A DNA stretch of 55,359 nucleotides from an uncultured Lachnospiraceae bacterium (GTDB lineage: Bacteria; Bacillota; Clostridia; Lachnospirales; Lachnospiraceae). Location of the stretch: assembly GCA_902767335.1 (NCBI GenBank), contig CACXHD010000126.1, positions 1-55,359 of the forward strand. The letters run 5' to 3'. Every line of letters starts with the position of its first letter. Within the stretch, counting starts at the first letter, position 1. The notes beneath the pieces are model-generated. The model was not told the DNA's origin. It saw only the letters and a list, made by a program, of their open reading frames with translations, and searched no databases. Both the position numbers and the translations under genes were made by a program. Positions 3 to 35,579 of the stretch are shown in pieces.

Positions 3-218
3 TTTTACAGTTTTGCGAAAGGTTATGTATTTTTTACCGGGGCCAACGGTCTGGAAAACCATGTGCCGAAGGGCATACCGGGAGCCATTCTAAGCGGCGG
101 CCTGATCCTGCCGCTGGATATCGCGGTGGGATTTGTTGTAGCCTGTACCATGTTTGGCTTTTTCAGCCTGTTTCGGAGAGGAAGTATCGGCGGTGTTTGG
201 GAATCTACTGGTAAATAA
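3..218 (+). CDS. Na+/H+ antiporter MnhB-like subunit, C-terminal part (5' end outside window)
   Basis: Frame 3 is open from the window edge to TAA 216-218. It gives a hydrophobic tail (GAILSGGLILPLDIAVGFVVACTMFGFF). Its position directly upstream of an MnhC-like gene fits mrp/mnh operon order. It is absent from the ORF track because there is no in-window start. Confidence 0.4.
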   Translation, partial: FYSFAKGYVFFTGANGLENHVPKGIPGAILSGGLILPLDIAVGFVVACTMFGFFSLFRRGSIGGVWESTGK

Positions 219-573
219 TGAGGAAGCAGTGGCAGTTATACTGTTCGGCATCGGTTTTACGATGCTGCTCTTTCAGCGCAATCTGTTCAAGAAGCTGATC
301 GGTATGAATATCATGGATACCGGAGTTTTTCTTTTCCTTGCCTCCATGGGCTTTATCGAGGGAAGAAAGGCGCCGATCATCGAAGACGGGATTATGGAGA
401 TGGAGCATTATATCAATCCGGTTCCCGCCGGTCTGGTGCTCACCGGTATTGTTGTTTCGGTTTCCGTGACAGCGATCATGCTTTCCCTGACGATTCGTCT
501 GTATAAACGTTATCATACATTGGATCTGGACGAGCTCTATGCGCTCTCCGGTCATTTGGAGGAGGACAGATAA
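193..573 (+). CDS. mnhC: Mrp/Mnh antiporter subunit C (NuoK-like small membrane subunit)
   Basis: Track ORF 154-573. The best start is GTG 193, with GGAGAGGAAG 8 nt upstream. It is a three-TM small protein (LIGMNIMDTGVFLFLASMG). Its TAA stop abuts the GTG of the next gene. Confidence 0.7.
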   Translation: MFGNLLVNNEEAVAVILFGIGFTMLLFQRNLFKKLIGMNIMDTGVFLFLASMGFIEGRKAPIIEDGIMEMEHYINPVPAGLVLTGIVVSVSVTAIMLSLTIRLYKRYHTLDLDELYALSGHLEEDR

Positions 574-2076
574 GTGGACTTCATCCGTAATTTTCCGTTG
601 TTTACCATCGTACTGAGCCTGTTTTCCGGGGTACTGTGTTACATGCTTCCCCCGAAAGCGGCAAGGCGATATACGATGTGTTATGAAAGCCTGCTGATCC
701 TCCTGACCGGCAGCGTGCTCTGGTATACGATCCATACCGGCGTACCCTTCACATATGTGATGGGCGAATTTCCCGCTCCCTGGGGCAATGAGATCCGGGC
801 AGGCGTGCTCGAAGCGCTGATGGCGGTGGTTTTCATGATCATCATGCTCTGCTCGGTTCTGGGCGGGTACCGGTTTGTGGACACCGACATGGATAAGAGC
901 AAGGTGAATCTGTACTATACGCTGCTCAACCTGATGACGGCGGCGCTGATGGCTCTGATCTGGACGAACGACCTGTTTACCGGGTATGTATTTCTGGAAA
1001 TCCTGACGCTGACCAGCTGCGGGGTTCTGATCGTCCGTGAAATCGGGCGGACCACCCTGGCCGCGGTACGCTATATGATCCTGAATCTTCTCGGATCCGG
1101 CCTGTTCCTGCTGGGCGTCGTACTGCTCTATGATCTGACCGGAAATCTGCTGATGGTGCCGATGCACAAAGAGATCGTGTCCCTCGCGGCGGATCCGGCG
1201 GTCCTGCCGGTGCTGACCATCAGCGTCGGGATTCTGACCATCGGTCTTGCCATCAAGAGCGGTCTGTTTCCCTTCCATTTCTGGATGCCGGATACCTACG
1301 GATGGGCGACGCCGACTTCCGCGTCGGTCCTTTCGTCTCTGGTGTCGAAGGCCTATATTTTCCTGCTGATCAAGACGTATTACCGGGTCATCGGACCGGA
1401 GGTGATCGCCGGGCTGCCCATCCGGAATATTCTGCTGGTGCTCGGCGCGGGCGGGATTGTGATCGGTTCCGTGCAGGCCATGCATGCAAACAATATCAAC
1501 CGGATGGTGGCCTTTTCTTCTGCGGCCCAGATCGGTTATATCTATGTCGGGATCGGACTGGGCGGAGAAGCAGGCTATGTGGCGGCCATTTTCCATATCC
1601 TGGCGCACGCGGTGACCAAATCCATGCTGTTCCTGACAACGCCCCGTCTTGCGGAGGTGTCCGGGGACAGTCTGCGATTCCGGAAACTGCAGGGAAGCGC
1701 CCTGCGGAATCGGGACGCCGGATTCTTTTTCCTGATCGGCAGTCTGTCTATGATCGGCATTCCGATTTTTGCCGGTTTTGCTTCGAAGATCCAGTTTGCG
1801 ATGGCAGCCGTGGATTCCGGGAGCTTTCCCAAGCTGACGCTGGTGATGCTGGTGCTGGCGGTCAGCTCGATGCTCAACGCGATTTACTTTATCCGCACCC
1901 TGATCCGTATTTACAGCGATCCCCTGGAAAAGATGAAGAAATCGGATATCCGGCCGCATCACCGGATGGGATATAATATCCCGATGGCTGTTCTGAGCAT
2001 TCTGAACCTGTTTCTCGGGTTGTTCTCCTGGGTTGCGGCAGATCTGATACAGAAAGGGCTGACAATGTTCAGCTGA
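574..2076 (+). CDS. MrpD/NuoN/NuoM-family proton-conducting membrane subunit (paralog 1)
   Basis: 500-aa polytopic protein with family motifs GLFPFHFWMPDTY, SSAAQIGYIY and HAVTKSMLFL. Confidence 0.85.
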   Translation: MDFIRNFPLFTIVLSLFSGVLCYMLPPKAARRYTMCYESLLILLTGSVLWYTIHTGVPFTYVMGEFPAPWGNEIRAGVLEALMAVVFMIIMLCSVLGGYRFVDTDMDKSKVNLYYTLLNLMTAALMALIWTNDLFTGYVFLEILTLTSCGVLIVREIGRTTLAAVRYMILNLLGSGLFLLGVVLLYDLTGNLLMVPMHKEIVSLAADPAVLPVLTISVGILTIGLAIKSGLFPFHFWMPDTYGWATPTSASVLSSLVSKAYIFLLIKTYYRVIGPEVIAGLPIRNILLVLGAGGIVIGSVQAMHANNINRMVAFSSAAQIGYIYVGIGLGGEAGYVAAIFHILAHAVTKSMLFLTTPRLAEVSGDSLRFRKLQGSALRNRDAGFFFLIGSLSMIGIPIFAGFASKIQFAMAAVDSGSFPKLTLVMLVLAVSSMLNAIYFIRTLIRIYSDPLEKMKKSDIRPHHRMGYNIPMAVLSILNLFLGLFSWVAADLIQKGLTMFS

Positions 2077-2092
2077 CGGGGAGGTCGAATTT

Positions 2093-3568
2093 ATGATATC
2101 AATCCTTGCGTTTTTATTTCCGGTTGCTGCCGGCACTGCGGTGAGCGCTGCAGTGAAAGAGGAAACACTGCGCAATCGGCTGTATGCAGCGGTCATGCTG
2201 CTCACGGATGTGCTGGGCGTTCTGGCAATGAAGTCCGGCAAAAGCGTTTCGGCTGTGAACCTCTCCGAACGGGCTTCCCTGACCTTCTGCCCGGACCGGC
2301 TGGGGATCTACGCAATGTCCGCAGTCCTGATTCTGTACACGGCGGTATGCTTTTATGCCTTCGCCTATATGAAAACCGAAGAGCGGGTGAACCTGTTTTT
2401 TGCCTGCTTTTTCATCTCACTGGGAGCGATGATGGCCGTATGCATGTCTTCGAACCTGGTGACGCTGTATTTTGCCTTCGAACTGGCGACGCTCTCCACG
2501 GTACCGATGGTACTCCATGAGATGACGAAGGATGCGGTGACCGCCGGCGTAAAATATCTGTTTTACTCCATCGGCGGAGCGCTGCTCGGCCTTCTTGCCG
2601 TCTTTTTCATTTATGCCTTTTCCACAGGAGACGCTGGTTTTGTCCTGGGCGGCTTCATCGACCGGGGAAAGGTCGCGGCGCATGAGACCGCATTTTTCGC
2701 GGCGGTCCTGGCGGGCATTATCGGTTTCGGCACAAAGGCCGGTATGTATCCGATGCACGGCTGGCTGCCGAGCGCGCATCCCATTGCACCTGCGCCCGCA
2801 TCCTCCCTGCTGTCCGGCATCATTGCGAAAGCCGGTATCGTGGCGGTCATTCGTCTGGTTTACTACTGTGTCGGCGCGGACCTGCTCCGGGGCACCTGGG
2901 TGCAGCGGACATGGATGATCCTTGCGATGCTGACGGTACTGATGGGTTCGACCATGGCCTTCCGTGAGAAGGTGACGAAGAAACGGCTTGCGTATTCCAC
3001 AATCAGCCAGATTTCCTATATCATGCTGGCGCTTTCCTTCCTGACAGACGACGGCCTTCGCGGCGGTCTGATGCAGCTGATGAGCCATATGGCGGCAAAG
3101 GGCTGCCTGTTCCTGGCAGCCGGTGTATTTATCGTTATTCTGGGAAGCCACCGGGTGGAGGAACTGCGGGGCGTCGGCCGGCAGATCCCGGTGACGATGT
3201 GGTGCTTTTTGATTGCATCCCTGTCTCTGATCGGGATTCCGCCGATGGGAGGTTTCGTAAGCAAATGGGTGATTGCCGGCGCTGCGCTGGCCGCCGAAGA
3301 CGGTATCTGGAGTATCCTTCCGCCGGTGGTTCTGCTGATCTCTGCGCTTTTGACGGCGGGGTACCTGCTTCCGGTCGTGATCGACGCGTTCTTCCCTGGG
3401 AAAGATTTTGAAGAGGCCCGGGAGCAGGCGGAAGCAGCGGACGGCGGCGAAGCGGCCCGCACGAAGCGGGAGCCGTATCTGATGACGATTCCGATGATTG
3501 CGCTCTGCCTGACGGCCCTGCTTATGGGTATTTTCGGCGTCAGTATCGTAGGGAGGGTAATACTGTGA
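2093..3568 (+). CDS. MrpD/NuoN/NuoM-family proton-conducting membrane subunit (paralog 2)
   Basis: 491-aa polytopic protein with motifs KAGMYPMHGWLPSAHP, YSTISQISYIM and SHMAAKGCLFL. Confidence 0.85.
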   Translation: MISILAFLFPVAAGTAVSAAVKEETLRNRLYAAVMLLTDVLGVLAMKSGKSVSAVNLSERASLTFCPDRLGIYAMSAVLILYTAVCFYAFAYMKTEERVNLFFACFFISLGAMMAVCMSSNLVTLYFAFELATLSTVPMVLHEMTKDAVTAGVKYLFYSIGGALLGLLAVFFIYAFSTGDAGFVLGGFIDRGKVAAHETAFFAAVLAGIIGFGTKAGMYPMHGWLPSAHPIAPAPASSLLSGIIAKAGIVAVIRLVYYCVGADLLRGTWVQRTWMILAMLTVLMGSTMAFREKVTKKRLAYSTISQISYIMLALSFLTDDGLRGGLMQLMSHMAAKGCLFLAAGVFIVILGSHRVEELRGVGRQIPVTMWCFLIASLSLIGIPPMGGFVSKWVIAGAALAAEDGIWSILPPVVLLISALLTAGYLLPVVIDAFFPGKDFEEAREQAEAADGGEAARTKREPYLMTIPMIALCLTALLMGIFGVSIVGRVIL

Positions 3569-5097
3569 ATCCACTGTTTCTCCTGGCTTTGATTATTACA
3601 CCGCTTCTGGGCGGCTTCTGCATCATCCCGCAGCATTTTGACGATGACCGGAAACGCAGTATATATGCGGAAGCGGTGGTCTGCCTGACATCGGTGCTGA
3701 TCTGGATCGCCATCGCAAAGGTGCAGCGGGGCAGACCGGTGGTCATCTACAGCTTTACAGAGGATTTTTTCATTGAGTTCTGTATGGACGGACCGGCGAT
3801 GCTGTTTGCCGGAATGATCTCCATTCTCTGGCCGCTGGTGATGCCCTATGCGTTTGAATACATGGAGCACGAACGCCGAAAAAACGGTTTTTTCGCCTTT
3901 TATGTGATGACCTACGGCATTACCCTGGGGATTGCATTTGCCGCGAATATGACCACCCTTTACGTTTTCTATGAAATGCTTTCGCTTGTGACGATCCCGC
4001 TGGTCAGCCATTACATGGATCATGAAAGCATGTATGCCGGCAGAAAATATGCCGCCTTTACCATCGGAGGCGCATCGCTTGCCTTTTTCGCGGTGGTGAT
4101 GACAACCCTTTGGGGAAACAGCGGGCGGTTTATTTACGGCGGGAGTGTGAAAGCCGCTCCGGGTTCCGTGATTCTGCAGACGGCGTTTCTTTTCGGCTTT
4201 TTCGGATTTGGCGTCAAGGCAGCGATTTTCCCGCTGCACAGCTGGCTGCCCACGGCCTCGGCCGCTCCGACGCCGGTGACGGCGCTGCTGCACGCGGTTG
4301 CGGTTGTCAATTCCGGTGTGTTTGCCGTTCTCCGGCTGGTATGGTATGTGTTCGGACCGGAACTCCTTACAGGTACAAAAGCGGCGGACATCGCGCTTCT
4401 GACGGCGGAATTCACCCTGGTCTATGCGGCCTTCCTGGCGGTGAAGGAACGGCATTTCAAACGCCGCCTGGCTTACTCCACGGTGAGCAATCTTTCTTAT
4501 ATGCTGACGGGCATCCTGCTCCTGACGCCCTATGGCCTGGAGGCGGGCATGATGCATATGGTTTTCCACAGTGTCATCAAGATGTCGCTGTTTCTGTGCG
4601 CCGGCGCCTTTATGCATATGACCGGCAATGCTTATGTCTATGAGGTGAACGGAGTCGGGCGGCAGATGAAAGTGACCTTCATTTTCTATACCCTGTCCGC
4701 CCTGTCGCTGACGGGTATCCCGTTGCTTTGCGGATTTGTCTCAAAATGGCATCTTGTGCTGGCATGCCTGCGTCGGGCGGATATGATTTCCTATATCGGC
4801 GGAGCGGCACTGATCCTCTCTGCGTTTGCCTGTGCGGTCTATACGCTGAGCGTCAGTATCCGGGCATTCTTCCCGATCACCGGCACAGACTGGTATCAGG
4901 CGGCCCGGCCGGCGAGCGCTTCGACGGAAGGAGCGCCTGCGGCGGCAGCGGCCCGGACTAAAAAAGGGAAGACCGTTACAGATCCGGGGATACGGATGCT
5001 GCTTCCGATTGTGGTTTTCGGCATCATCAATGTGATTTTCGGTGTATTTCCGCATCCGCTGGTGAAACTGCTGGAAGCCATTGCTTCGGGCATGTAG
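3565..5097 (+). CDS. MrpD/NuoN/NuoM-family proton-conducting membrane subunit (paralog 3)
   Basis: 510 aa. The GTG start overlaps the previous stop (GTGA). Motifs are KAAIFPLHSWLPTA, YSTVSNLSYM and FHSVIKMSLFL. It ends with TAG. Confidence 0.85.
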   Translation: MNPLFLLALIITPLLGGFCIIPQHFDDDRKRSIYAEAVVCLTSVLIWIAIAKVQRGRPVVIYSFTEDFFIEFCMDGPAMLFAGMISILWPLVMPYAFEYMEHERRKNGFFAFYVMTYGITLGIAFAANMTTLYVFYEMLSLVTIPLVSHYMDHESMYAGRKYAAFTIGGASLAFFAVVMTTLWGNSGRFIYGGSVKAAPGSVILQTAFLFGFFGFGVKAAIFPLHSWLPTASAAPTPVTALLHAVAVVNSGVFAVLRLVWYVFGPELLTGTKAADIALLTAEFTLVYAAFLAVKERHFKRRLAYSTVSNLSYMLTGILLLTPYGLEAGMMHMVFHSVIKMSLFLCAGAFMHMTGNAYVYEVNGVGRQMKVTFIFYTLSALSLTGIPLLCGFVSKWHLVLACLRRADMISYIGGAALILSAFACAVYTLSVSIRAFFPITGTDWYQAARPASASTEGAPAAAAARTKKGKTVTDPGIRMLLPIVVFGIINVIFGVFPHPLVKLLEAIASGM

Positions 5098-5114
5098 GAA
5101 ACAAGGGGGAAAAA

Positions 5115-7148
5115 ATGCTCTTTCTTTTGATTGTATTCGGACCGTTTGCCGCGGCTCTGATTTCATATCTGATCGGCAGAAAAACAGAGGGGATTCCCTG
5201 GATGGCGTTCCGTATGATTTTTACTGCCGCGGAGTGTCTGCTTGTCCTGGCGCTGTTTCTGACCTGGAGAAGGGATCCGGGGCTGGCCTTCGGGTTCCGG
5301 CAGACGGGCATATTTGCCGGTGAACTGGGATTTACCGCAGACGGGTTCCGAATCGTCTATGCGGCGATCACCGCCTGGATGTGGATGCTGACCACGTTTT
5401 TTTCGGAGGAATATTTTAAAGAGGAACGGGAACACCTGAACCGTTACTGGTTTTTCATCCTGCTTACGCTGGGGGCAACGGAAGGCGTCATGCTCTCCGC
5501 GGACCTGATGACGGCGTTTTTCTTTTTTGAGATTCTGTCCTTTACCTCCTTTACATGGGTGATCCATGAAGAGACAAAGGAGGCGGTGCAGGCGGGGTAT
5601 ACCTATCTGTTTATTGCCGTGATCGGCGGCCTGGTGCTGTTCATGGGGCTGGCACTGGTTTGGTACACCTGCGGAACGCTGCGGTTTGACGAGCTTGCCG
5701 GGGCAGCGCGGAATGTTCAGCAGCCCGGGATCCTCCGGGCAGGCGCGGTCTGCATTCTCTTCGGCTTCGGCGCGAAGGCCGGTATGGTGCCGGTCCATGT
5801 CTGGCTTCCGAAAGCGCATCCCGTGGCGCCGTCGCCGTCTTCGGCCCTGCTGTCCGGTATTCTGACCAAGGTCGGAATCTACGGGATTCTGATGATTTCC
5901 CTGCATGCCATGGCCGAAGATGTCATCTTCGGATGGATCGTCCTTTGCGCCGGTGGAATCACCATGCTTCTCGGAGCGGTGCTGGCGCTGTTTTCTGTCA
6001 ATCTGAAACGGACACTTGCCTGCTCTTCCATGTCGCAGATCGGGTTCATCCTGACGGGAACCGGCATGATGATCCTGCTGGGCCATGCAGGAGAAGAGGA
6101 AGGCGTCCTGCTGGCGTGTTCCGGCCTGATGATGCATATGGTGAATCATTCACTGATCAAGCTGACCCTCTTCATGTGCGCCGGCGAGGTGGTCATGCGG
6201 GCTCATACGCTGCTGCTCGACGAAATCCGGGGCTTTGGAAGATCCCGGACGATCCTGAAGGTATCCTTTGCGCTGGGCGCACTCGGGATCAGCGGCGTGC
6301 CCCTGTTCAACGGATATATCAGCAAAACGATGCTGCATGAGAGCATTGTGGAGGGAATTGGCGCCTGCGCCGGCGTGGGACCGGTTCTGCATGTGGTTGA
6401 GTGGGTCTTCCTTTTCTCGGGCGGTCTGACCTTTGCCTATATGCTGAAACTGTTTCTCTGCATTTTTGTACAGAAAAATAAGGATCCGCGCCGTCAGCAG
6501 AGCTACGACCGGAAAGAGGGTTATCACTATAAAGCCAGTGCATGGCCGATTCCGGTGTCCGCATTGTTCTGCTTTCTCCTCGGGCAGCCGGCTGCGGCAC
6601 TCGGCATTGCCCGTATGATGACCGGAGAGTCCCTGGCATTTCATGCGTTTTCATTTGAAAACCTGAATGGGGGCATGATCTCCCTGACGATCGGCGCCCT
6701 CGTGTATCTGCTTGTGGTCCGCCGGTGGATGGTGTCGGAGGGCTCCTATGTCAACCGCTGGCCCCGGAAGCTGGACCTGGAAACCGCCGTATACAGACCG
6801 CTGGTCACAAAAATCCTTCCCGGAGCGATGGGAGCGGTGCTGCGTCTGTTTGGCGAGAATGTGATTACGGGGGTTCTGGCCAGAGTCGTATTCTTCGTGT
6901 TTACGGTACTCATGCGTGCCGCGGAAATGAGTATGGACGGTCTGATTGTCCTGCTTCGCCGAACGGTGCTGAAAGAAAAGAGAGGAAATACCGGGGACAA
7001 AGAAGGCATGTGGCTCGGCCGGATCATTGCAGCCGAGCTTACCCAGGCCTCCAGACCGCTGGTTTCAAACTTTACATTTGCGCTGATGATGACCTGCATC
7101 GGAATCATTGTGATCCTGTGCGTGCTGGTATATGCATCCGTGCTGTGA
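5115..7148 (+). CDS. MrpA/NuoL-like antiporter subunit with long C-terminal extension
   Basis: 677 aa with motifs KAGMVPVHVWLPKAHP, SSMSQIGFI and NHSLIKLTLFM. It also has a ~200-aa C-terminal extension that ends in a final TM helix, as in NuoL/MrpA. Confidence 0.8.
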   Translation: MLFLLIVFGPFAAALISYLIGRKTEGIPWMAFRMIFTAAECLLVLALFLTWRRDPGLAFGFRQTGIFAGELGFTADGFRIVYAAITAWMWMLTTFFSEEYFKEEREHLNRYWFFILLTLGATEGVMLSADLMTAFFFFEILSFTSFTWVIHEETKEAVQAGYTYLFIAVIGGLVLFMGLALVWYTCGTLRFDELAGAARNVQQPGILRAGAVCILFGFGAKAGMVPVHVWLPKAHPVAPSPSSALLSGILTKVGIYGILMISLHAMAEDVIFGWIVLCAGGITMLLGAVLALFSVNLKRTLACSSMSQIGFILTGTGMMILLGHAGEEEGVLLACSGLMMHMVNHSLIKLTLFMCAGEVVMRAHTLLLDEIRGFGRSRTILKVSFALGALGISGVPLFNGYISKTMLHESIVEGIGACAGVGPVLHVVEWVFLFSGGLTFAYMLKLFLCIFVQKNKDPRRQQSYDRKEGYHYKASAWPIPVSALFCFLLGQPAAALGIARMMTGESLAFHAFSFENLNGGMISLTIGALVYLLVVRRWMVSEGSYVNRWPRKLDLETAVYRPLVTKILPGAMGAVLRLFGENVITGVLARVVFFVFTVLMRAAEMSMDGLIVLLRRTVLKEKRGNTGDKEGMWLGRIIAAELTQASRPLVSNFTFALMMTCIGIIVILCVLVYASVL

Positions 7149-7348
7149 CCGCGGATCCGCATCCCGTTTCCTTCCGGGAAAATTCATGGAATTGTGCCGC
7201 CTTCTTCCTTAAGAAAATGTACATCTTCTTATAGATATGTTTCTGTAGTTTTCCGAAGGGCCTTCTGCTATAGTTAACGCAGATGGTGCATTTTGACAAA
7301 CGTTGCGCAGCGGCGGCTTTGGCCGCTCTTCGGGAGAGGAGGCAGAGA

Positions 7349-9337
7349 ATGTCGGGAAAAAACTGCAGAAAGGGATTGCTGGCAGGCATGATGGTGGTCC
7401 TGCTGGCGGGAAATCTGACGGCGCAGGGAGAAAACCTGTATGAAACCGGGCAGAGCGAAGAAGCGTTTGAGACGGAGGAAACCATCCGGCCCTGTACGGA
7501 TGAATTTCCGGGAGAGTATGTGGAGCAGGAGACGGAGGCAGCTGCGGAGGACCCGGAGACGGAGGCCGGGGAAGACGGATCGGCCTCGGTACGTGTCAGC
7601 GGGATCCGGTATGCAAAAAGCGAAAAAGATCTGTATGATACGCTTCTTAAGGTAGATGTGCCGATTTACCTGGACTATGAGCTTGCCGAGGAGTCTGTCA
7701 TGGATGCGGCGGCACCGGCGTTCGGGGATGCGGGAAACAGCGCCGCAAAGACAGAAGCAATGACGTACGATTCGGCTCCGGAGGCGGAGTATTCGGAGAC
7801 GAATGTTCGTACCGAAGGCGTGGATGAAGCGGATATCATCAAGACGGACGGCCGGTATATCTATATCCTCCGGGGAGGAACCGAGCTGATTACGGTGGAA
7901 GCGAAGGGATCGGAGACCGCGCTTGTGTCGTCCCTGAAGATTGCGCAGGACAGCACCTGGGATTCGCCGGGCGCACAGGAGCTTCTGCTGTCGGAGGGAA
8001 AGGCGTACGTGATCCTTGAAGAATCGGATCTGTCCGGAGACAAGATTGAGAAATACGGATATTACTCGCCGACCAACCGGATGACAAAACTGATTACGGT
8101 GGATATGACGGATCCGTTTGAACCGGTGATCGAAGACGAGTTCAGCCTTTCGGGGAATTACTTGCAGTCCAGAAAAATGGACGGGGTGATCTATCTGTTC
8201 ACACAGTGGAGCCCGTATCTTGGCGGCTCTGCGGAGGACAGCGAGCTGCTTCCGTGGATCGGCGGCCGGAAGGCGGAGGTTTCCTCGGTGATTATTCCGT
8301 CCATCGTGACGCAGACCAGCTATCTGACAGCGGCTTCCGTCCGTACGGATGCGCCGGGGCAGGCGGAGGATTACTGCGCTGTGGTTTCCGGGGCGGATGA
8401 ATTCTATGTCAGCACGGACAGCATTTATGCCGTCAATGTGGACAACTGGTCATCCGTTACGAGTTCGGAGATCACAAAGCTGACCTTCCGGGACGGAGAG
8501 ATCGAAGGAAAAGCGGCCGGAACCGTGCGCGGTACGGTAAACAATTCCTTCTCGCTGGATGAATACAACGGGTATCTGCGCGTCCTCACGACCTACTGGG
8601 GAAGCGCCAGACTCAACCTGCTGAAGGTGCTCGGACAGCTGTTCGGCATCGATTACTATGACGAAGATGAATGGGTGCGGCACAACGCGCTTTTTGTCCT
8701 GGATGAAGACATGAACTACGCCGGCAGCCTGAAGGATTTGGCGAGAAACGAGGAGATCAAGTCCGCGCGGTTTTTCGGGGATACGGTTTATTTTGTGACC
8801 TTCCGCAATACAGATCCGCTGTTTACGGCCGATCTGTCCGATCCGTCTCATCCCAGAGTAATCGGAGAGCTGAAGCTTCCCGGATTTTCCGCTTATCTGC
8901 ATCCCTTCGGAGAGGGAAAACTGCTGGGCCTGGGCTATGACGCGGACGAGCTGACCGGCGTGACGAGCGGACTGAAGCTGTCCCTGTTCGATATTTCCGA
9001 CCCGGCAAATGTGAAGGAAACCGCACGGCGCATTGTGCCCGGCGTGACCTGGTGTCCGGCGGTGGACGAATACAAGGCGATCTTTGCCAACCCCGCGCGG
9101 AACCTGGTCGGCTTCTGGTGTGAAGGCAGGTATATGGTCTTCGCCTGGGACGGCACAGACGGGTTTGAGAGGGTGCTCCTCTATGATTTCTTTGAGGATG
9201 ACTTGCAGGAGAAGAATGATTACAATACCATGCGGGGACTCTATATCGGCGACGTCTTTTATCTGGCGGGAGCCGGCAGTGTGATTGCCTTTGACATGGA
9301 TGCAGATTTTCAGAAAACCGCGGTGGTGGTCTTCTGA
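7349..9337 (+). CDS. secreted beta-propeller domain protein (Beta_propel/PF09826-like)
   Basis: Track ORF 7283-9337. The likely start is ATG 7349, after GGAGAGGAGG. It has a signal-like N-terminus (LLAGMMVVLLAGNL). The motif SETNVRTEGVDEADIIKTDGRYIYIL is typical of this family. Confidence 0.7.
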   Translation: MSGKNCRKGLLAGMMVVLLAGNLTAQGENLYETGQSEEAFETEETIRPCTDEFPGEYVEQETEAAAEDPETEAGEDGSASVRVSGIRYAKSEKDLYDTLLKVDVPIYLDYELAEESVMDAAAPAFGDAGNSAAKTEAMTYDSAPEAEYSETNVRTEGVDEADIIKTDGRYIYILRGGTELITVEAKGSETALVSSLKIAQDSTWDSPGAQELLLSEGKAYVILEESDLSGDKIEKYGYYSPTNRMTKLITVDMTDPFEPVIEDEFSLSGNYLQSRKMDGVIYLFTQWSPYLGGSAEDSELLPWIGGRKAEVSSVIIPSIVTQTSYLTAASVRTDAPGQAEDYCAVVSGADEFYVSTDSIYAVNVDNWSSVTSSEITKLTFRDGEIEGKAAGTVRGTVNNSFSLDEYNGYLRVLTTYWGSARLNLLKVLGQLFGIDYYDEDEWVRHNALFVLDEDMNYAGSLKDLARNEEIKSARFFGDTVYFVTFRNTDPLFTADLSDPSHPRVIGELKLPGFSAYLHPFGEGKLLGLGYDADELTGVTSGLKLSLFDISDPANVKETARRIVPGVTWCPAVDEYKAIFANPARNLVGFWCEGRYMVFAWDGTDGFERVLLYDFFEDDLQEKNDYNTMRGLYIGDVFYLAGAGSVIAFDMDADFQKTAVVVF

Positions 9338-9446: not shown

Positions 9447-10457
9447 ATGTCTGAAATCGGAGTGCTGGGAGCCGGCACCTGGGGAATGGCTCTTGCCCGA
9501 ATGCTTTGCAACAGTGGTCATGGCGTGATGGTCTGGTCTGCTCTTGAGCGGGAGATCGACGAATATTCTTCCACGCGCAGACATCCGAACCTGCCCGGGA
9601 TGGTGATCCCGGACGGGGTCCGGTTTACGAAAGAGATCCGGGAGGCCGTGACGGATAAGGATATTGTTTTGTTCGCGGTTCCGTCCGTCTTTGTGCGCAG
9701 CACGGCAGCCAAAGCCGCTGCGTTTATCCCGGAAGGACAGATCATCGTGGACGTGGCCAAGGGCATTGAGCCGGATACGCTGTATACGCTCACGGAGGTC
9801 ATTGCGGACGAGCTGCGCAGAAACGGCAGGGGCGGAAACGTCCGTCTGGTCGCGCTGTCCGGACCGACCCATGCGGAGGAGGTTGCAAGGGACATGCCCA
9901 CGACGATCGTCTCCGCGGGAGAGGACATGCGGGCTGCCCGCTTTGTGCAGGATGTGTTTATGAATACCTGCATGCGGGTTTACACCAATCCGGACGTCAA
10001 GGGCGTAGAGCTCTGCGGAGCGCTTAAGAACATTATCGCGCTTGCCGCCGGGATGGCCCGGGGCCTCGGCTACGGGGACAACACCAAAGCGGCACTGATT
10101 ACCAGAGGGATGGCGGAGATTACCCGCCTCGGACTGGCGATGGGCTGCCAGGAGACGACCTTTTACGGACTGGCCGGCATCGGCGATCTGGTCGTGACCG
10201 CGACCAGCGTGCACAGCCGCAATAACCGGGCCGGCGAACTGATCGGACAGGGGATGAGCCCGGAGGAAGCCGTGAAAAAAGTTGGAATGGTCGTGGAAGG
10301 CATCAACGCCCTTCCGGCAGCCATGGAGATGGCAGATGCCTGCCTTGTCCAGATGCCGATTGTCAGCGGCGTGAACCGCATCATCCGGGAAGGCGCAGAT
10401 CCGAACAAGGTGGTACGGGAACTGATGGAGCGGGAGAAAAAACCGGAGAGGTATTGA
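9447..10457 (+). CDS. gpsA: NAD(P)H-dependent glycerol-3-phosphate dehydrogenase
   Basis: N-terminal GAGTWGMALA dinucleotide fold, GPTHAEEV, GALKNIIALAAG and NRAGELIGQG motifs. Length is 336 aa. Confidence 0.9.
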   Translation: MSEIGVLGAGTWGMALARMLCNSGHGVMVWSALEREIDEYSSTRRHPNLPGMVIPDGVRFTKEIREAVTDKDIVLFAVPSVFVRSTAAKAAAFIPEGQIIVDVAKGIEPDTLYTLTEVIADELRRNGRGGNVRLVALSGPTHAEEVARDMPTTIVSAGEDMRAARFVQDVFMNTCMRVYTNPDVKGVELCGALKNIIALAAGMARGLGYGDNTKAALITRGMAEITRLGLAMGCQETTFYGLAGIGDLVVTATSVHSRNNRAGELIGQGMSPEEAVKKVGMVVEGINALPAAMEMADACLVQMPIVSGVNRIIREGADPNKVVRELMEREKKPERY

Positions 10458-22036: not shown

Positions 22037-22177
22037 ATGAATAAAAGTGAGCGATACAGAGAAATTGTTGAAATTCTGCAGCGGGAGCACAGCGTGGATG
22101 TCAATGATCTGGCCAACCGTTTCCCGTTTTTTTCGGAGTGCGCTGAGGAGACTGGAGGGATACGATGCTGGAACTGA
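22037..22177 (+). pseudogene. possible relic of a DeoR-type HTH regulator N-terminus (46 codons)
   Basis: The short ORF MNKSERYREIVEILQREHSVDVNDLANRF resembles DeoR N-termini. It loses similarity after a T7 run and stops inside the cbiO start region. Confidence 0.25.
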
Positions 22178-22878
22178 AACAGGTCCGATTTGCTTATGAA
22201 AAAGGGAAGGACGTGATCCGGGATGTCAGTTTCCGGATTGGAGACGGAGAGAACGTCGGACTGATCGGCGCCAACGGTGCCGGAAAATCCACGGTTCTGA
22301 AACTGATCCTGGGGCTGCTTGCCGGAGAAGGAGAAATCCTGGCAGATCAGATCCCGGTTGAGAAAAAAACGCTTCCTCAGATCCGGAAGAAGATGGGCTA
22401 TGTCCTCCAGAACTCCGACAACCAGATGTTTATGCCGACGGTCCTCGAGGACATGGTGTTCGGGCCGGTCAACTACGGCCTTACGCGGGCGGCGGCGGAA
22501 GAAAAAGCGGAGCGCGTCCTGGAGCAGCTGAATATTTCCGGCCTGAAAGACCGGTACAATCACCGGATTTCCGGCGGAGAGAAAAAAATGGCGGCGATTG
22601 CCACCATTCTGACGATGGAGCCGGATCTGATCCTGATGGATGAACCGACGGCATCGCTGGATCCTTACAACCGGAGACAGATGATCCGGCTGATGCGGGA
22701 TCTTTCCCAGACATTGCTGATCACTTCGCACGACCTGGATATGATTTACGATACTTGCAGCCGGGTGATCCTGATGCATGAGGGGAAAATCGCCGCCGAC
22801 GGCCCCGCAGACGTCATTCTGCGGGACCGGAAGCTGCTGGAGGCATGCCATCTGGAGCTGCCGCTTCGGATGAAGTGA
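22165..22878 (+). CDS. cbiO: ECF transporter ATP-binding protein CbiO
   Basis: Walker A GANGAGKST, signature ISGGEKK and Walker B LILMDEPT. GGAGGG lies 6 nt before the ATG. Confidence 0.85.
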   Translation: MLELKQVRFAYEKGKDVIRDVSFRIGDGENVGLIGANGAGKSTVLKLILGLLAGEGEILADQIPVEKKTLPQIRKKMGYVLQNSDNQMFMPTVLEDMVFGPVNYGLTRAAAEEKAERVLEQLNISGLKDRYNHRISGGEKKMAAIATILTMEPDLILMDEPTASLDPYNRRQMIRLMRDLSQTLLITSHDLDMIYDTCSRVILMHEGKIAADGPADVILRDRKLLEACHLELPLRMK

Positions 22879-28009: not shown

Positions 28010-28318
28010 TTTCGATGAAGCGACAGGCCAGGGAAGCGCTGATTAATTCCTGATTCTGCTCTATCTCCTGCGGATAAGCAAATCTCTAATCTAATCTTTG
28101 AGCGCGCGATGCGCCTAAAGCCGCGAGCGGTGCGGGTTACAAGGAAAGCATTTATCTGCGCCGCACTGCGATCTGCCGGAAACTTTAAGGAAACATGGAT
28201 TAAATCTGTGTTTCCTTAGAAGCGACCTGTCCTCTGTGACGGATATGTGACAGGACAAATGATAGAGTAAGAGAAAACAGATCCATTGAAAACAGCGGCA
28301 GAGAAAAGGAGGGTATCC

Positions 28319-30262
28319 ATGAAAAGAAGATCTTTCTTATCAATCGTGATTTTTGCATTACTCGTCACGGCAATGTTCTCACTGAGCGCAAAGGCCAGTG
28401 ACTTTATCGGCGAGATGTATGCGAACGCAGATTATGTCTATGTTTACGAGGCAAAAGATACCAATTCAGATGTGATCCGATATCTGTCCGGCGGCCAGTC
28501 GATTCTGGTTGACTCAATCACCGAGAATCAGAAATGGGCCCACGTTCTGATGGAGGCATCGGACGGAGAGGGTCAGGAGGACGGCTGGGTCCGGATGAGC
28601 GACCTGGTTTTCACCATGCCGTCCCAGTATTGTTATCATCAGTGGACGGACTGGCAGACGATTAAGGAGGCAACCTGCACGCAGCCGGGCCTGCTTTCCA
28701 CCTACTGTACCATCTGCGGACTCGGCGAGACGTATGAGACGCAGCCCCTCGGACACAGCTTCGGAAACTGGGAGACGGTGAAACCGGCGACCTGTACGTC
28801 GGAAGGAGAACGTATCTCCAGATGCGTCCGCTGCGGATACGATGAACATCAGAAAACCGAAAAACTGGCCCATGAATACGGCGACTGGACGGTCATCCGG
28901 CAGGCGACCTGTACGGCGGAGGGCGAGCGCTCCCACAAATGCAAAGTCTGCGGAGCGGAGGAAAAACAGACAGTGGACCGCCTTCCGCACAATTTCGGAA
29001 AATGGACGGTTCTGAAGGAGGCAACCTGCACCGCGGAGGGGGAACAGTCCCATAAGTGCCAGAACTGCGGCTTTGAAGAAAAAGCCACAATCGAAAAGAT
29101 CCCCCATGACTTCGAATGGAAAGTCATCACCGAGGCGACGGATCATTCCGCCGGTGTGCGCACAAATGTCTGCAAAGTCTGCGGATTTACGGAGGAAGCC
29201 GTGGAATTCGATCCGGAAGGGACGCTCCGCCGCGGCGACCGCAGCGAGGAAGTGCGCGAGGTCCAGCAGCTCCTGGCGGATCAGAATTATCTGAGCGCGG
29301 ACGGCGCGGACGGGATCTTCGGCGGCGGCACGGAAAAAGCTCTCATGGAATTCCAGAATGACCAGGGCCTGGCGCCGGACGGTGTGGCCTGGCCGCAGAC
29401 AATCCGGAGACTGCATCATGACTTCGGAGAGTGGAAGGTGATCAAAAAGGCGACCCGCTCCAGCGCGGGCGAACGCGTCAGAACCTGCAAGGAATGCAGC
29501 TATGAGCAGCATGAGACGATTCCGATGAGCCCGTACTTTGAGAAGGGCAGACGCGGAGAAGACGTGCGCGCTGTCCAGCAGATGATGACCATGCTCGGTT
29601 ACCAGACCGGCTCCTGCGACGGTATCTACGGACCGCTCCTTGATACTGCGTTTGAGGCGTTTGCAGAGGCCAGGAAGACCGAATTTGAGCCGGGAAGCAT
29701 AACCCCTGCGGAGCTGGATTCCATGATCAATGAAGTCATCCGCCAGGTTCCGGAAGACAAATGGATGAAGGACCAGGGACTGGGAACGCCGGTCAATATG
29801 GCGCTGACCGTGAATCCGCTGGTTGGCGAATCCCCGGATAATACGGATGATGTCGTCGAGTGCAGCTGGACGCTGACCAATCTGGGCGATACGGACTGTG
29901 TGTTCACGGCGCTCCTGCTGAATTTCGGGGAGGATCAGGATTTCCGCGAAGACAACCTGGTGGTTGTGCTCGACGGGATCGATCTGAAAGCAAACTGCGA
30001 GAACAGCGCTTCCGGAACCTTCAAGGTCAGCAGGGACTGGGGAAAAGGAGTGATGAACTTCTGCGCCCTGGCGGTGGATACCGAGGCCGGCTATGTATGG
30101 CTCAGCAACGAAGACCAGATCGAAAACGGGGAAGAAGAACCGGAGGAATCGGTTGTCCTCGAAGACATGACCGAAGACCCGGCGGAAAACGTTCTGTATG
30201 AGGACATGACCGAAAATCCGGAGGAGCAGGTGCTGTCCGAAGACACGACCGAGAAAGACTGA
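28319..30262 (+). CDS. secreted wall-binding protein: SH3b-like domain, six Cys/His repeat modules, two PG_binding_1 domains, acidic tail
   Basis: ATG 28319 follows AAAGGAGGG, and there is a signal peptide (FALLVTAMFSLSAKA). The repeated module is W-x-V-x-x-A-T-C-T-x-x-G-E-x-x-x-x-C-x-x-C-G...H. The PG-binding motifs are GDRSEEVREVQQLLADQNYL and GEDVRAVQQMMTMLGY. Confidence 0.6.
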   Translation: MKRRSFLSIVIFALLVTAMFSLSAKASDFIGEMYANADYVYVYEAKDTNSDVIRYLSGGQSILVDSITENQKWAHVLMEASDGEGQEDGWVRMSDLVFTMPSQYCYHQWTDWQTIKEATCTQPGLLSTYCTICGLGETYETQPLGHSFGNWETVKPATCTSEGERISRCVRCGYDEHQKTEKLAHEYGDWTVIRQATCTAEGERSHKCKVCGAEEKQTVDRLPHNFGKWTVLKEATCTAEGEQSHKCQNCGFEEKATIEKIPHDFEWKVITEATDHSAGVRTNVCKVCGFTEEAVEFDPEGTLRRGDRSEEVREVQQLLADQNYLSADGADGIFGGGTEKALMEFQNDQGLAPDGVAWPQTIRRLHHDFGEWKVIKKATRSSAGERVRTCKECSYEQHETIPMSPYFEKGRRGEDVRAVQQMMTMLGYQTGSCDGIYGPLLDTAFEAFAEARKTEFEPGSITPAELDSMINEVIRQVPEDKWMKDQGLGTPVNMALTVNPLVGESPDNTDDVVECSWTLTNLGDTDCVFTALLLNFGEDQDFREDNLVVVLDGIDLKANCENSASGTFKVSRDWGKGVMNFCALAVDTEAGYVWLSNEDQIENGEEEPEESVVLEDMTEDPAENVLYEDMTENPEEQVLSEDTTEKD

Positions 30263-32335: not shown

Positions 32336-33793
32336 TTAAAACCCGAGCAGGATCGAGAGTACCGTAATGAAGGCAAGCAGGAGGACGAGCAGGATCAGCT
32401 CCTGCTTCCAACGATTCTGGAGAAGCCCGACGCATTCGCGGACAAAGGCATTCGGCCAGAACCACCATTTTGTACGGGCTCCGATCCCTTCGGCCGCAAG
32501 GCCGGCGTTGGATGCCCAGACACCGCTGCGGAAGACGTGATAGTTGGTCGTAGAGTAGATCACCTTCGCGTCTTTTTTTCGTTCCTCGATCAGCTTTTTT
32601 GAAAAAGCCATGTTCTGATATGTGTTCCGGGACTGATCCTACTTCAGGATTCTGTCTTCGGGAATTCCCTGCTCGAGGAGATACCGCTTCATGGCATCCG
32701 CCTCCGGCATCACTTCATCCGGACCCTGCCCGCCGGACGGGACGAAGATCAGATCCAGTCCGGTTTTCTCTTTCTGCTCGGCGGCGAAACGGATGGCGCG
32801 GTCCACCCTCCCTTTCAGCAGCGGCGGCAGGGAGCCATCCTTCCGGAAGCCGCACCCGAGGATGATACAGAAATCTTTGCCGGGAGCCGGCTGGTGCTTT
32901 GCGGCGATGATTCCGCAGATGACGGCGCCGATCAGCATACACTCGAAATAGACATAGCCGGTGGCGTAGATTGAATGAAGCGTGTCGATCAGAAGGATCT
33001 CTTTCCAGGAGCTGGAATAGTTTCTGGTATACATGATCCATCCGATGAGATCTCCCACGACAAGAAAGATGCTGACAAGGATTCCAAGCAGATTCTGGAT
33101 TCTTTTTCTTTCGTGGCGCAGAAGCTCGATATTACTGATAAACATAGCGGCTGAAAAAACAAGGATCAGCGGCGTCGTCACCAGCATGAAATGGAAACTC
33201 ATGGCGCGTATGGTACTGTAGACCGCAAACATGGGAAATTCCGAAGGATTATTTATATGGTCGATGGTGTTGATGAGCAGGACGATGCCGATATCGAGGG
33301 CAAACAGGGAAAAACCTGCACTGTAGATCGTCGCGTAGGAATAGAAATCCCGGGCGAGAGATCTGTGAAAACTGTGCAGCATGGATGCGGCCGCGATGAA
33401 AAAGAACGCAGTGCATAACACAAGAAACAGGCTGTCCCCCGTAAACCCGCCGGTGGTCAGGTTATAGACGGTACCCGTCGGACTGGTGTAGTATTCCGAA
33501 AACCAGCTCGGGTCTCCTTCCGGCGTGAGGACGGATGCGCCGACTTCACCTTCCCTTCCGGGGCGGATCCTTACCTCCATGAAATCGCCATGGCGCCCGA
33601 CTTCCTCCATCTCTATGATTCCCGGACGGTCAAATTTGATTTCCGGTTTCTGAGCGGGCTGCTCAAAACTGTCCATCGGAATAAAATCCGTGTATCGGTT
33701 GTGCGACAACCGGTAGACAAAGAACAGGAGAAGAAAGCCTGCTGCCAGGATTCCCATCTGTATTCCCATTCGTCTCATCCGTTTCTGACCCAT
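32336..33793 (-). pseudogene. DUF218/YdcF (ElyC-SanA) family membrane protein interrupted by one in-frame TAG
   Basis: Track ORFs 32639-33793 and 32336-32611 are in the same frame. They are separated only by TAG (32639-32641) plus 9 sense codons. The read-through text ILK*DQSRNTYQN has the stop where family members carry a conserved Glu before S-x-N-T. Confidence 0.75.
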
Positions 33794-33833
33794 TTTCTGC
33801 CTCCTGATATTCTGAATGCCAGCCCCTGCAGAC

Positions 33834-33862
33834 TTGACAGAACAGGCTGATGTCTTTACTAT
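33834..33862 (+). promoter_or_regulatory. promoter upstream of the GG-leader peptide gene
   Basis: TTGACA, 17-nt spacer, TACTAT. This implies a leader of about 170 nt. Confidence 0.45.
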
Positions 33863-34037
33863 ATATCATGTGGGTATAAAAAGTAATCTGTTTTTTATCG
33901 TCAACGACATAATAAAATGACGTAACGCCGGCAGTTCTGCGGCGATGTGTGACGGTTTTGTGACACAGCAGGTGATAAACTACAGATAACAAAAACAAAG
34001 GGGTGCCGTAAAACGGCGGAAAAAGGAGGAAACAAAT

Positions 34038-34340
34038 ATGGCAGACATCAATAAAATCAACCCGGAAGAACTCGACAATGTAACAGGCGGAGCAGCCGGA
34101 GCAGGCGTATGGAAAACCGTGTGCAATCTCGACGGCGGTTATCTGGCAATCCGTACCGCACCGTCAGCGAATTACGAGAATGAAATCAACCATATCGGTC
34201 TTAAGAACGGAGAGAAGGTACAGGTGACCGGAGCAACGGTTCAGGGTACCGGTTTTGGCGGCGGCATAGCGTATTATACCTGGGTATATGCACCGAAGTT
34301 CGGTGTGTCCGGATTTGTAAATGCGGCATATCTGGGATAA
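34038..34340 (+). CDS. small secreted protein: double-glycine (bacteriocin-type) leader fused to an SH3b-like domain
   Basis: The leader MADINKINPEELDNVTGG has I(-12), E(-8), L(-7), V(-4) and GG(-2,-1). The 82-aa core fits an SH3b pattern (GYLAIRTAPS..LKNGEKVQV..YTWVY..SGFVNAAYL). AAAGGAGG RBS. Confidence 0.7.
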   Translation: MADINKINPEELDNVTGGAAGAGVWKTVCNLDGGYLAIRTAPSANYENEINHIGLKNGEKVQVTGATVQGTGFGGGIAYYTWVYAPKFGVSGFVNAAYLG

Positions 34341-34643
34341 ATTCGCCGGGCATCGCGAAAAACTTAAAAAGAGAATACATGCGTTTTTATCAGACAAGAG
34401 CTTCGGAGATCCTCCGGGGCTTCTTGTGTTTATGACGACAGAATTGCGAACATGTATCGTCTGCAGAATCTCGCCGCTGCAGTTCTCTGCGCGGCAGGGG
34501 GATGGTTCCTTTTTGATTTGCGTTGATGGCAGGGAATAGCAGCGGAAGGGAAGAATACCAGGAATATAACAATTGCGCGGAACGGGTACTGCATGGTATA
34601 ATCAAAACTTACATCTGGAAAGAATACAGAAATGAGGTATGTG

Positions 34644-35579
34644 ATGGAATATTGGATTAATATTGTCCTGCTGTTTTTTGCATACGGATTTTTGGGATGG
34701 TGCATGGAAGTCATCCTGAAGTACCGGCAGTATCACCGCTTTATTAACCGCGGCTTTCTGACCGGCCCGATCTGTCCGATTTATGGGTGCGGAGCAGTTC
34801 TGATTACAGTGGTGATCGGGAATCTTTCCGATGTTGAATCGGGACTGGTCATGACCTTCGCTTTATCTTTTGTGATCTGTGCGGTCGTGGAATACTTCAC
34901 CGGCCTGATTCTGGAAAAGATTTTTCATGCGCGCTGGTGGGATTACAGCACCAAACCGATGAATCTGCACGGACGGATCTGGATCGGCAACCTGGTCCTG
35001 TTCGGCATCGGCGGAGTGGCGATCATGCATATCATAAATCCGGTTATTTATAAGGTCCTCGACCGCATTCCCGTTGGCACGAAGGAGATCATCATGACGG
35101 TTCTGCTGGTGGTCATTGCCGCGGACTTTGTGATTTCCTACTTTGTGCTGAAGCTGGTGAAGGTCGGCGTAGACAGCAGTGAAGCGGATAATACCGAAGA
35201 AATCAATAAAGAGGTCCGTCAGCTTCTGACGAACCGGTCGTATTTCTATTCACGTTTTGCCGATGCCTATCCGGAAGTGGTTTACCGGACCGAGCGTGTA
35301 CAGGCCAGGATTGCTGCGGTTAAGGCGGAGACGGAGCGCCTGCGTCAGGAAGCGGAGAAACGGCTCGAAATGGGAGCAGAAAAAGTCGCTGCCGGCCTTG
35401 AACCTGTGTACATGATTCGCGGAGAACTGATCGGAAAACAGGATGAACTGATTGCGATGCTCTATAATGAGCAGACCGCCAGCTCGGAGATGAAAGCGCT
35501 CAAGGCGGACATCGACAGACAGAAAGAACGTCTGGAAAAACATATTCTGGTCAAACGGCCCTACGGAAAACGCAGATGA
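34644..35579 (+). CDS. polytopic membrane protein (putative ABC-transporter type IV / PF06541-like) with C-terminal coiled coil
   Basis: The N-terminus FAYGFLGWCMEVILKY..NRGFLTGPICPIYG is typical of this family. The C-terminal ~110 aa are charged and helical. Confidence 0.65.
   Translation: MEYWINIVLLFFAYGFLGWCMEVILKYRQYHRFINRGFLTGPICPIYGCGAVLITVVIGNLSDVESGLVMTFALSFVICAVVEYFTGLILEKIFHARWWDYSTKPMNLHGRIWIGNLVLFGIGGVAIMHIINPVIYKVLDRIPVGTKEIIMTVLLVVIAADFVISYFVLKLVKVGVDSSEADNTEEINKEVRQLLTNRSYFYSRFADAYPEVVYRTERVQARIAAVKAETERLRQEAEKRLEMGAEKVAAGLEPVYMIRGELIGKQDELIAMLYNEQTASSEMKALKADIDRQKERLEKHILVKRPYGKRR

Follow-up and report, generated by a model that had tools for sequence, protein, structure and literature searches.

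What does it mean for a small clostridial protein to begin like a bacteriocin precursor and to continue, for the rest of its length, as a domain of the kind found in cell-wall-binding proteins, and by what route could it leave the cell when no exporter gene lies nearby? These questions are raised by a gene on a 55,359-nucleotide contig of an uncultured Lachnospiraceae bacterium (assembly GCA_902767335.1, contig CACXHD010000126.1; this whole stretch is called the window below). The open reading frame (ORF), at positions 34038-34340 of the forward strand, encodes a 100-residue product exactly as quoted in the initial annotation. It is here called GG-SH3b because it consists of a predicted double-glycine (GG) leader of 18 residues, MADINKINPEELDNVTGG (34038..34091, +), and a mature domain of bacterial SH3 (SH3b) type, 82 residues long and followed by the stop codon (34092..34340, +).

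Comparison with six orthologues leaves little doubt that this is a real gene. Substitutions pile up at third codon positions (9, 12 and 37 at the first, second and third positions in the comparison with locus L025, for example), and the reading frame is therefore under purifying selection. The leader is acidic (isoelectric point, pI, 4.05) and would be cut after G18 to release a basic product of 82 residues and 8.47 kDa (pI 8.1) that begins AAGAGVWK. Counting G18 as position -1, the leader has G at -2, V at -4, L at -7, E at -8 and I at both -12 and -15. C39 peptidases recognise the pattern L(-12)-X3-E(-8)-L(-7) ahead of Gly-Gly (PMC6363468), and hydrophobic residues at -4, -7 and -12 are those that make the leader contacts (PMC6959990). 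The residues G17-G18 lie within the 15-30 residues from the N-terminus where a cleavage motif of GG, GA or GS at -2/-1 is expected, and the recognition consensus is present in full, including the hydrophobic residues at -4 and -15. Of 1899 candidate starts in the window, a relaxed leader expression fitted only three, namely this one and two that are inside large ORFs. In the AlphaFold2 model the leader is disordered, with a predicted local distance difference test score (pLDDT) of about 42.

A search of curated models gave sub-threshold leader matches only, to Bacteriocin_IIc (13.6 bits, cutoff 27.1), L_biotic_typeA (17.3 bits, cutoff 21.7), ComC, TIGR01847 and TIGR03949. Bacteriocin_IIc was matched by 14 of 38 family members, with a best E-value of 2.6e-4. 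We expect that such models hold columns for the mature peptide which an SH3 cargo cannot match. The NHLP/Nif11 models of NCBIfam were matched neither by the window protein at E <= 1 nor by the 38 members at E <= 0.1.

The family itself is more informative. A word-indexed search returned 69 close relatives of about 100 residues, without names or Pfam calls; a profile search extended these to 280 relatives at E <= 1e-5, and a scan of 1.84 billion representatives to 318 at E <= 1e-3. None of the cluster members looked up was named. The leader is kept in 153 of 163 single-domain members, most frequently at a length of 18 residues, with G at -2 in all 153 leader-bearing members, G at -1 in 152, L at -7 in 129, E at -8 in 127 and I, L, M or V at -12 in 151. 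As this retention persists despite the divergence of the cores to 35-45% identity (mean column identity 44%), the leader is best explained as selected rather than fortuitous. By its sequence, the N-terminus is a true GG leader that selection has preserved, and the first description of these 18 residues agrees with the consensus at every key position. A scan of genome contigs placed the family at nine loci, all in metagenome-assembled genomes of Lachnospiraceae or Clostridiales; the sources named are RUG isolates, Porcincola, Lachnoclostridium and UBA4348, with one labelled ruminal, and the RUG names suggest a rumen origin. The metagenome scan added 15 contigs, mostly short. Plasmid and phage collections contained no homologue, hence offered no evidence of an origin on mobile elements.

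The mature part had been read as a bacterial SH3 domain, a view in which the family profile, the predicted structure and structural comparison all agree. The Pfam model SH3_3 aligns over residues 36-99 of the window protein with 16.2 bits against a cutoff of 27, and it is matched individually by 16 of the 38 members. In turn, the family profile matches secreted proteins with two to five tandem SH3_3 copies at E-values down to 1e-43, the value of the top tandem match, P0070, which has five copies; the repeats in these tandem relatives are SH3_3 by Pfam, with E-values down to 5e-25. Structure prediction, a check proposed with the initial annotation, gave an all-beta core of six strands in AlphaFold2 (pLDDT 83-92), for which the nearest Foldseek matches were SH3 domains of the PDB, including c-Src SH3 (probability 0.99, template-modelling score 0.66 on target), and endolysin SH3b modules (probability 1.0, root-mean-square deviation 2.8-4.1 over about 80 columns). 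Neither the single protein nor the profile found anything meaningful in sequence searches of the PDB. No hydrolase family of Pfam or NCBIfam was matched, and a single SH3 domain makes up all of the mature protein. The annotation had further stressed that the cargo is not a short peptide: with 82 residues this stands as a statement of size, but not as an oddity, given that such a size is within the range of ATP-binding cassette (ABC) transporters that contain a peptidase (PCATs). The oddity of this cargo is instead its wall-binding domain fold.

Relatives with several SH3_3 copies begin with Sec signal peptides or membrane anchors. At locus L038 (192-740, +), a protein of 182 residues with a Sec signal peptide has both an ordinary SH3_3 domain and a 75%-identical copy of the window domain, in which the GTGFGGG loop is retained. 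Because both the multi-copy relatives and the L038 protein carry Sec signal peptides, the SH3b cargo is expected to work outside the cell, and because L038 has the Sec-signal copy, the same domain would reach the outside through either of two routes, a GG leader or Sec.

If the leader is genuine, an exporter is required, and in the window there is none. The first description of the gene as an orphan was confirmed by three types of search over the 55 kb, namely Pfam annotation of the 10 largest ORFs, a scan for Walker and signature motifs of ABC proteins, and tblastn with two PCATs; no PCAT was found, the sole ABC match being a generic ABC ATPase near 22160-22820. Most of the roughly 15 distinct neighbourhoods compared contain no PCAT either, and they have no neighbour gene in common.

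A link between GG-SH3b genes and an exporter is found in relatives. At loci L024 and L025, a GG-SH3b protein 83% identical to that of the window is encoded in a same-strand cluster with a pair of PCAT-type transporter genes. The order is a response regulator, GG-SH3b, a secreted M4 (thermolysin-like) peptidase (833 residues in L025), a lantibiotic-protection-like ABC ATPase with an ABC-2 permease, a membrane protein of 136 residues, an HlyD-like protein of 161 residues whose N-terminus matches the NHLP HlyD model TIGR03794, and finally the two transporters, which exceed the cutoffs of TIGR03796 (922 bits, cutoff 853) and TIGR03797 (724 bits, cutoff 709). At L056 and L057, where GG-SH3b is 74% identical to the window protein, a compact operon carries p151, PCAT, ABC2, p97 and GG-SH3b. 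Here p151 is 52% identical to the 161-residue protein of L025, the L056 PCAT is 76% identical to that of L025, and the transporters are again of the TIGR03796 and TIGR03797 types. The PCAT sequences hold the motifs ECGAAC, NHFVVL and NDPARG, which we take to contain the catalytic Cys, His and Asp of C39 peptidases. In a third lineage, L001, whose GG-SH3b protein is 73% identical to that of the window, remnants of a PCAT system are left, namely p97 and pieces of p151 and ABC2. A response-regulator/histidine-kinase pair is also present, and insertion sequence (IS) transposases separate the GG-SH3b gene from all of these.

The p97 protein belongs to a second small-protein family of about 95 residues with a canonical GG leader and without a Pfam match. 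Its gene lies at 9602-9895 (+) in L056, between the ABC2 gene and GG-SH3b, and at 363-650 (-) in L001, where the protein begins MNKNDEIIELSADHLESINGG, again a canonical GG leader; the window contains no p97 homologue. Since p97 also carries a GG leader, the exporter appears to have at least two linked small-protein cargos, and p97 is, from the position of its gene, likely a second cargo of the same exporter. The size of the SH3b cargo is compatible with this route: PCAT1 has a cavity of 15,000 cubic angstroms and carries a cargo of 66 residues (PMC6959990), so that 82 residues and about 8.5 kDa would fit. Export of GG-SH3b by a C39-ABC transporter is thus a prediction backed by gene linkage in relatives.

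The control region points to a third component, a set of genes that may be expressed together. A promoter-like element at 33948..33981 (+) is composed of the repeats TGTGACG (33948-54) and TGTGACA (33959-65) with an 11-bp period, a 7-nt spacer and an extended -10 sequence, TGATAAACT (33973-81). It predicts a transcription start near 33988 and a 5' untranslated region of about 50 nt. The arrangement TGTGACA-N4-TGTGACA-N7-TGnTAnnnT precedes family genes in at least 8 lineages and in unrelated contexts, and its 30-nt pattern, TGTGACNNNNNTGTGACANNNNNNNTGNTA, occurs twice in the window vs no occurrence in 100 shuffles. The conserved DNA shared by the window and L025 reaches back only to about 95 nt before the ATG; in L025 the preceding gene stops just short of this position.

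When 466 kb were searched with a fuzzy pattern, the element was found before family genes and in three other places only. One copy, at 1330-1365 (+) of L025, lies between the GG-SH3b terminator and the operon for the M4 peptidase, immunity-like proteins and exporter (1474-8976). Another, at 63-98 (+) of L038, precedes the gene for the Sec-signal protein with the same domain. The third is in the window itself (28235..28268, +; TGTGACG-GATA-TGTGACA-N7-TGATAGAGT) and fits the pattern TGTGAC-N5-TGTGACA-N7-TGnTA perfectly. It lies about 50 nt before the ribosome binding site (RBS) and ATG of a gene for a secreted protein of 647 residues (28319..30262, +), which has, in addition to its signal peptide, two PG_binding_1 domains (Pfam E = 3.6e-20), CxxC repeats and a weak SH3_3-like segment. 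The two window genes are probably co-regulated. The 647-residue protein was considered as a GG-SH3b paralogue and rejected, as BLASTP gave no similarity. Because the same element precedes both an exporter operon and a second wall-binding gene, the genes that bear it look like a regulon.

The boxes of PhoB and the sites of SARP regulators are heptad repeats at 11-bp spacing that replace the -35 sequence and lie about 10 nt upstream of the -10. By analogy, two heptads one helical turn apart, combined with an extended -10 and no -35, suggest control by a winged-helix response regulator. In L025, the gene immediately upstream of GG-SH3b encodes a response regulator that is 30% identical to an L001 protein with Response_reg and Trans_reg_C domains. 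The likeness to heptad-repeat activator promoters includes the two 7-bp repeats and, in L025, an adjoining OmpR-family-like regulator, with TGTGACA as the family-specific sequence; the repeats may also resemble Bce-type response-regulator boxes, which is a lead only.

The promoter named in the initial annotation, TTGACA-17-TACTAT (33834..33862, +), does exist and agrees with the consensus at 10 of 12 positions. As the control region of the gene it did not hold up: it is distal, does not fall within the DNA shared with L025 and is not matched in the upstream DNA of other lineages, so that it is not conserved beyond the lineage of the window. It may still fire, and the leader of about 170 nt described with it is valid only in that case. 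The strong RBS, GGAGG (34025-34029), was rightly recognised, 8 nt before the ATG. It is preceded by a short GC hairpin read from the sequence, GCCG-TAAAA-CGGC (34005-34017; both within 34005..34029, +). A similar hairpin between a CA-rich tract and the RBS is seen in L025, L004, L001, L029 and L008, and is absent from L026 and L030; its sequence varies among lineages and its shape is kept. It could be an mRNA-stability or translational element. A second promoter class, roughly [TC]GTGGAT-N~17-CGTATA(T/A)(A/T), was observed upstream of the genes in L011, L036, L060, L063, L017, L041 and L044. Downstream of GG-SH3b in the window, a hairpin resembling an intrinsic terminator (34398-34422) is followed by a T-rich tail (34398..34432, +), and GG-SH3b therefore appears to be a monocistronic unit; the L025 orthologue has an equivalent hairpin, beyond which the second copy of the promoter element is found. 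The sole Rfam match in 33600-34700 was a chance one to a microRNA, hence this interval contains no known riboswitch or leader RNA.

Taken as a whole, we consider the following course of events likely. The gene would be transcribed from a compact promoter-gene-terminator cassette under the control of a response regulator, as part of a small regulon. The 18-residue leader of the product would dock on the C39 peptidase domain of an exporter whose genes lie in another part of the genome. This exporter would be an NHLP-type PCAT, made up of ABC1 with an active Cys/His/Asp peptidase, its ABC2 partner and a short HlyD-like protein. After cleavage behind G18, the 82-residue cargo would be translocated, would fold outside the cell as an SH3b domain and would bind peptidoglycan or a wall polymer.

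As to its purpose, our preferred guess, held at somewhat less than even confidence, is a non-lytic, bacteriocin-like or otherwise competitive wall-binding factor directed against related bacteria. The points in favour of antagonism are the export route, the immunity-like ABC proteins and the protease under the shared promoter of L025, the tandem and dispersed paralogues, and the IS-flanked copies. A more daring form of the same idea, which we put forward as speculative, is a new class of PCAT-exported non-enzymatic effectors, in which a free wall-binding domain, released under the control of a response regulator, would coat or block a peptidoglycan or wall-polymer epitope on competitors or would shield the producer, for instance from lysins or phage, with p97 and, in some genomes, the M4 protease as partners. 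Such a bacteriocin-like system would act by binding, and not by pore formation or hydrolysis.

Several observations weigh against this picture and temper the confidence given to it. With regard to export, no PCAT was found in the window nor in the flanks of about 12 other neighbourhoods, and the domain also travels by Sec in L038, which means that its function does not depend on the PCAT route. With regard to the two parts of the protein, the Foldseek E-values are weak (0.006-0.1), and the window protein falls below the cutoff of every curated leader or SH3 model of Pfam and NCBIfam. With regard to control, the assignment of the regulator draws on geometry plus one adjacency. Finally, a classical bacteriocin is disfavoured by the lack of a dedicated immunity gene at most loci and by a core that is strongly conserved and not diversifying.

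The last two points lead to the alternative that survives best and that we hold to be the next most likely role, although still doubtful in itself: a housekeeping, self-directed wall-binding protein, for which the GG/PCAT route would merely be an alternative to Sec. This alternative differs from the preferred reading in role only. The protein could compete for SH3b sites, or modulate autolysins or wall-anchored SH3_3 proteins during remodelling. Besides the absence of immunity genes at most loci and the purifying selection on the core, it is favoured by Sec delivery of the same domain under the same promoter element in L038 and P0147, by the apparent co-regulation of the PG_binding_1 protein in the window, and by the frequency of wall-related neighbours (Peptidase_S66, SH3_3, Choline_bind_3 with YkuD, PG_binding_1 with HAD, and capsule genes). 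What tells against it is that the promoter in L025 is shared with a lantibiotic-protection-like ABC transporter and an M4 protease, as is typical of antimicrobial loci, and that the occurrence of paralogues in pairs and of copies flanked by IS elements hints at an accessory gene with a competitive role.

That the product is a protein pheromone, sensed by a two-component system and inducing its own TGTGACA regulon, is improbable. Pheromones are indeed among the known GG-leader cargos, the regulon-like promoter is common to the exporter operon, and a response regulator adjoins the gene in L025, as a response regulator and histidine kinase lie near the system in L001. However, known GG pheromones are short and unstructured, in contrast to a folded domain of 82 residues with multi-copy, Sec-secreted relatives, and most loci have no linked histidine kinase.

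Less probable still is a cytoplasmic SH3-like protein which is not exported and whose uncleaved, disordered tail resembles a leader by chance. The absence of a PCAT from the window and the sub-threshold scores of all curated leader models would fit such a protein, but the position-by-position consensus in 153 of 163 members, the linkage of two lineages to PCAT operons and of one to their remnants, and the extracellular location of the domain relatives do not. The precursor of a peptide made on ribosomes and modified post-translationally (RiPP), such as a lanthipeptide, with a leader that directs modifying enzymes, can practically be dismissed, since the weak matches that hint at it (Pfam L_biotic_typeA, E = 0.004; NCBIfam lacticin-481 family, E = 0.059) are confined to residues 4-28, that is, the leader, the core is a confidently folded domain, and no LanM, LanB/C or conserved radical-SAM genes occur in any of the about 15 neighbourhoods.

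The genes around the family members were also surveyed. In the window, the downstream neighbour was correctly identified as a PF06541 protein (E = 1e-50), but its proposal as the sole candidate partner has to be abandoned: the terminator stands between the two genes and the adjacency is not conserved, being confined to contigs syntenic with the window that encode an identical protein and absent from about 14 other neighbourhoods. L049 is syntenic with the window except that its PF06541 gene (3017-4843) runs into AcrB-like sequence; this fusion is most likely an assembly chimera.

Some genomes have two paralogues of GG-SH3b, which form a tandem pair with a gap of about 110 nt or lie 1.2 kb from each other (L060 618-1337; L063 10001-10715; L062 1743-2462; L011 10001-11849). 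The tandem pairs are followed by a gene combining Choline_bind_3 with YkuD (L,D-transpeptidase), and in L060 also by capsule/wall-polysaccharide genes. HAD-family (PF12710) proteins adjoin the gene in three unrelated contexts (L008 4035-4892; L047 3577-4908; L057 8898-10085). One of the three is fused to PG_binding_1, and those of L056/L057 and L047 are 38% identical over 81 residues. A fused ABC ATPase and FtsX permease of about 950 residues (L012 4019-6862) lies 1.5-3 kb downstream of family genes, and a similar protein (L022 12511-15366) about 2 kb downstream of another; these fusions may be antimicrobial-peptide resistance or sensing transporters.

Comparison with known systems places GG-SH3b close to several of them. 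With the GG peptides exported by PCATs, also known as ABC-transporter maturation and secretion (AMS) proteins, such as class II bacteriocins, ComC-type pheromones and class II microcins, it shares the leader pattern and the combination of an anionic leader with a cationic cargo. In those systems too, the precursor is frequently encoded away from its transporter and under a promoter common to the regulon. Unlike them, it has a folded SH3b cargo that is not a short membrane-active peptide, and most loci are without an adjacent immunity gene. The nearest case in size is CtA, the substrate of PCAT1 in Clostridium thermocellum, which comprises 90 residues (a GG leader of 24 and a cargo of 66) and is encoded beside its transporter (PMC6959990). 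Both are clostridial small-protein cargos of unassigned function with leaders read through positions -4, -7 and -12 (PMC6959990). In contrast to PCAT1, the exporter in relatives of GG-SH3b is an NHLP-type system of two ABC proteins and a short HlyD-like protein; the CtA cargo is not known to be an SH3 domain. The resemblance to NHLP/Nif11 export (TIGR03794, TIGR03796 and TIGR03797) is that relatives adjoin equivalog-level TIGR03796 and TIGR03797 proteins and a TIGR03794-like protein; the differences are an 18-residue leader of class II type, an HlyD-like protein of only 151-161 residues and the lack of modification enzymes.

With regard to the cargo, fold, sequence family and extracellular site are those of the SH3b (SH3_3, SH3_5) modules of lysostaphin, zoocin A and PlyB-like endolysins. 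Unlike these bacteriolysins and endolysins, GG-SH3b has no catalytic domain and would be secreted by means of a GG leader, and not by Sec or a holin. Lactococcin 972 is a small, beta-rich bacteriocin that forms no pores and binds a wall precursor; it is exported by Sec and has a dedicated immunity ABC transporter. If the SH3b protein is antagonistic, lactococcin 972 would be its nearest functional analogy, the folds being unrelated. A search of the literature on double-glycine leaders with SH3 or SH3b domains revealed no description of such a family, and none of the curated models of Pfam and NCBIfam describes one. Both the secretion signal and the fold are known; it is their combination and the genomic arrangement that are not described before, rather than a new category of system.

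In the literature consulted, PCAT cargos are short bacteriocin and pheromone peptides, RiPP precursors, microcins and CtA. A family of hundreds of proteins in ruminant-gut Lachnospiraceae, which puts a wall-binding domain behind a GG leader, widens this range and provides a natural folded-domain substrate for studies of the PCAT mechanism. The shared TGTGACA element offers a means to define the regulon and the signal behind it. Together, these findings suggest that rumen Lachnospiraceae deploy free SH3b modules, either for competition or for wall homeostasis.

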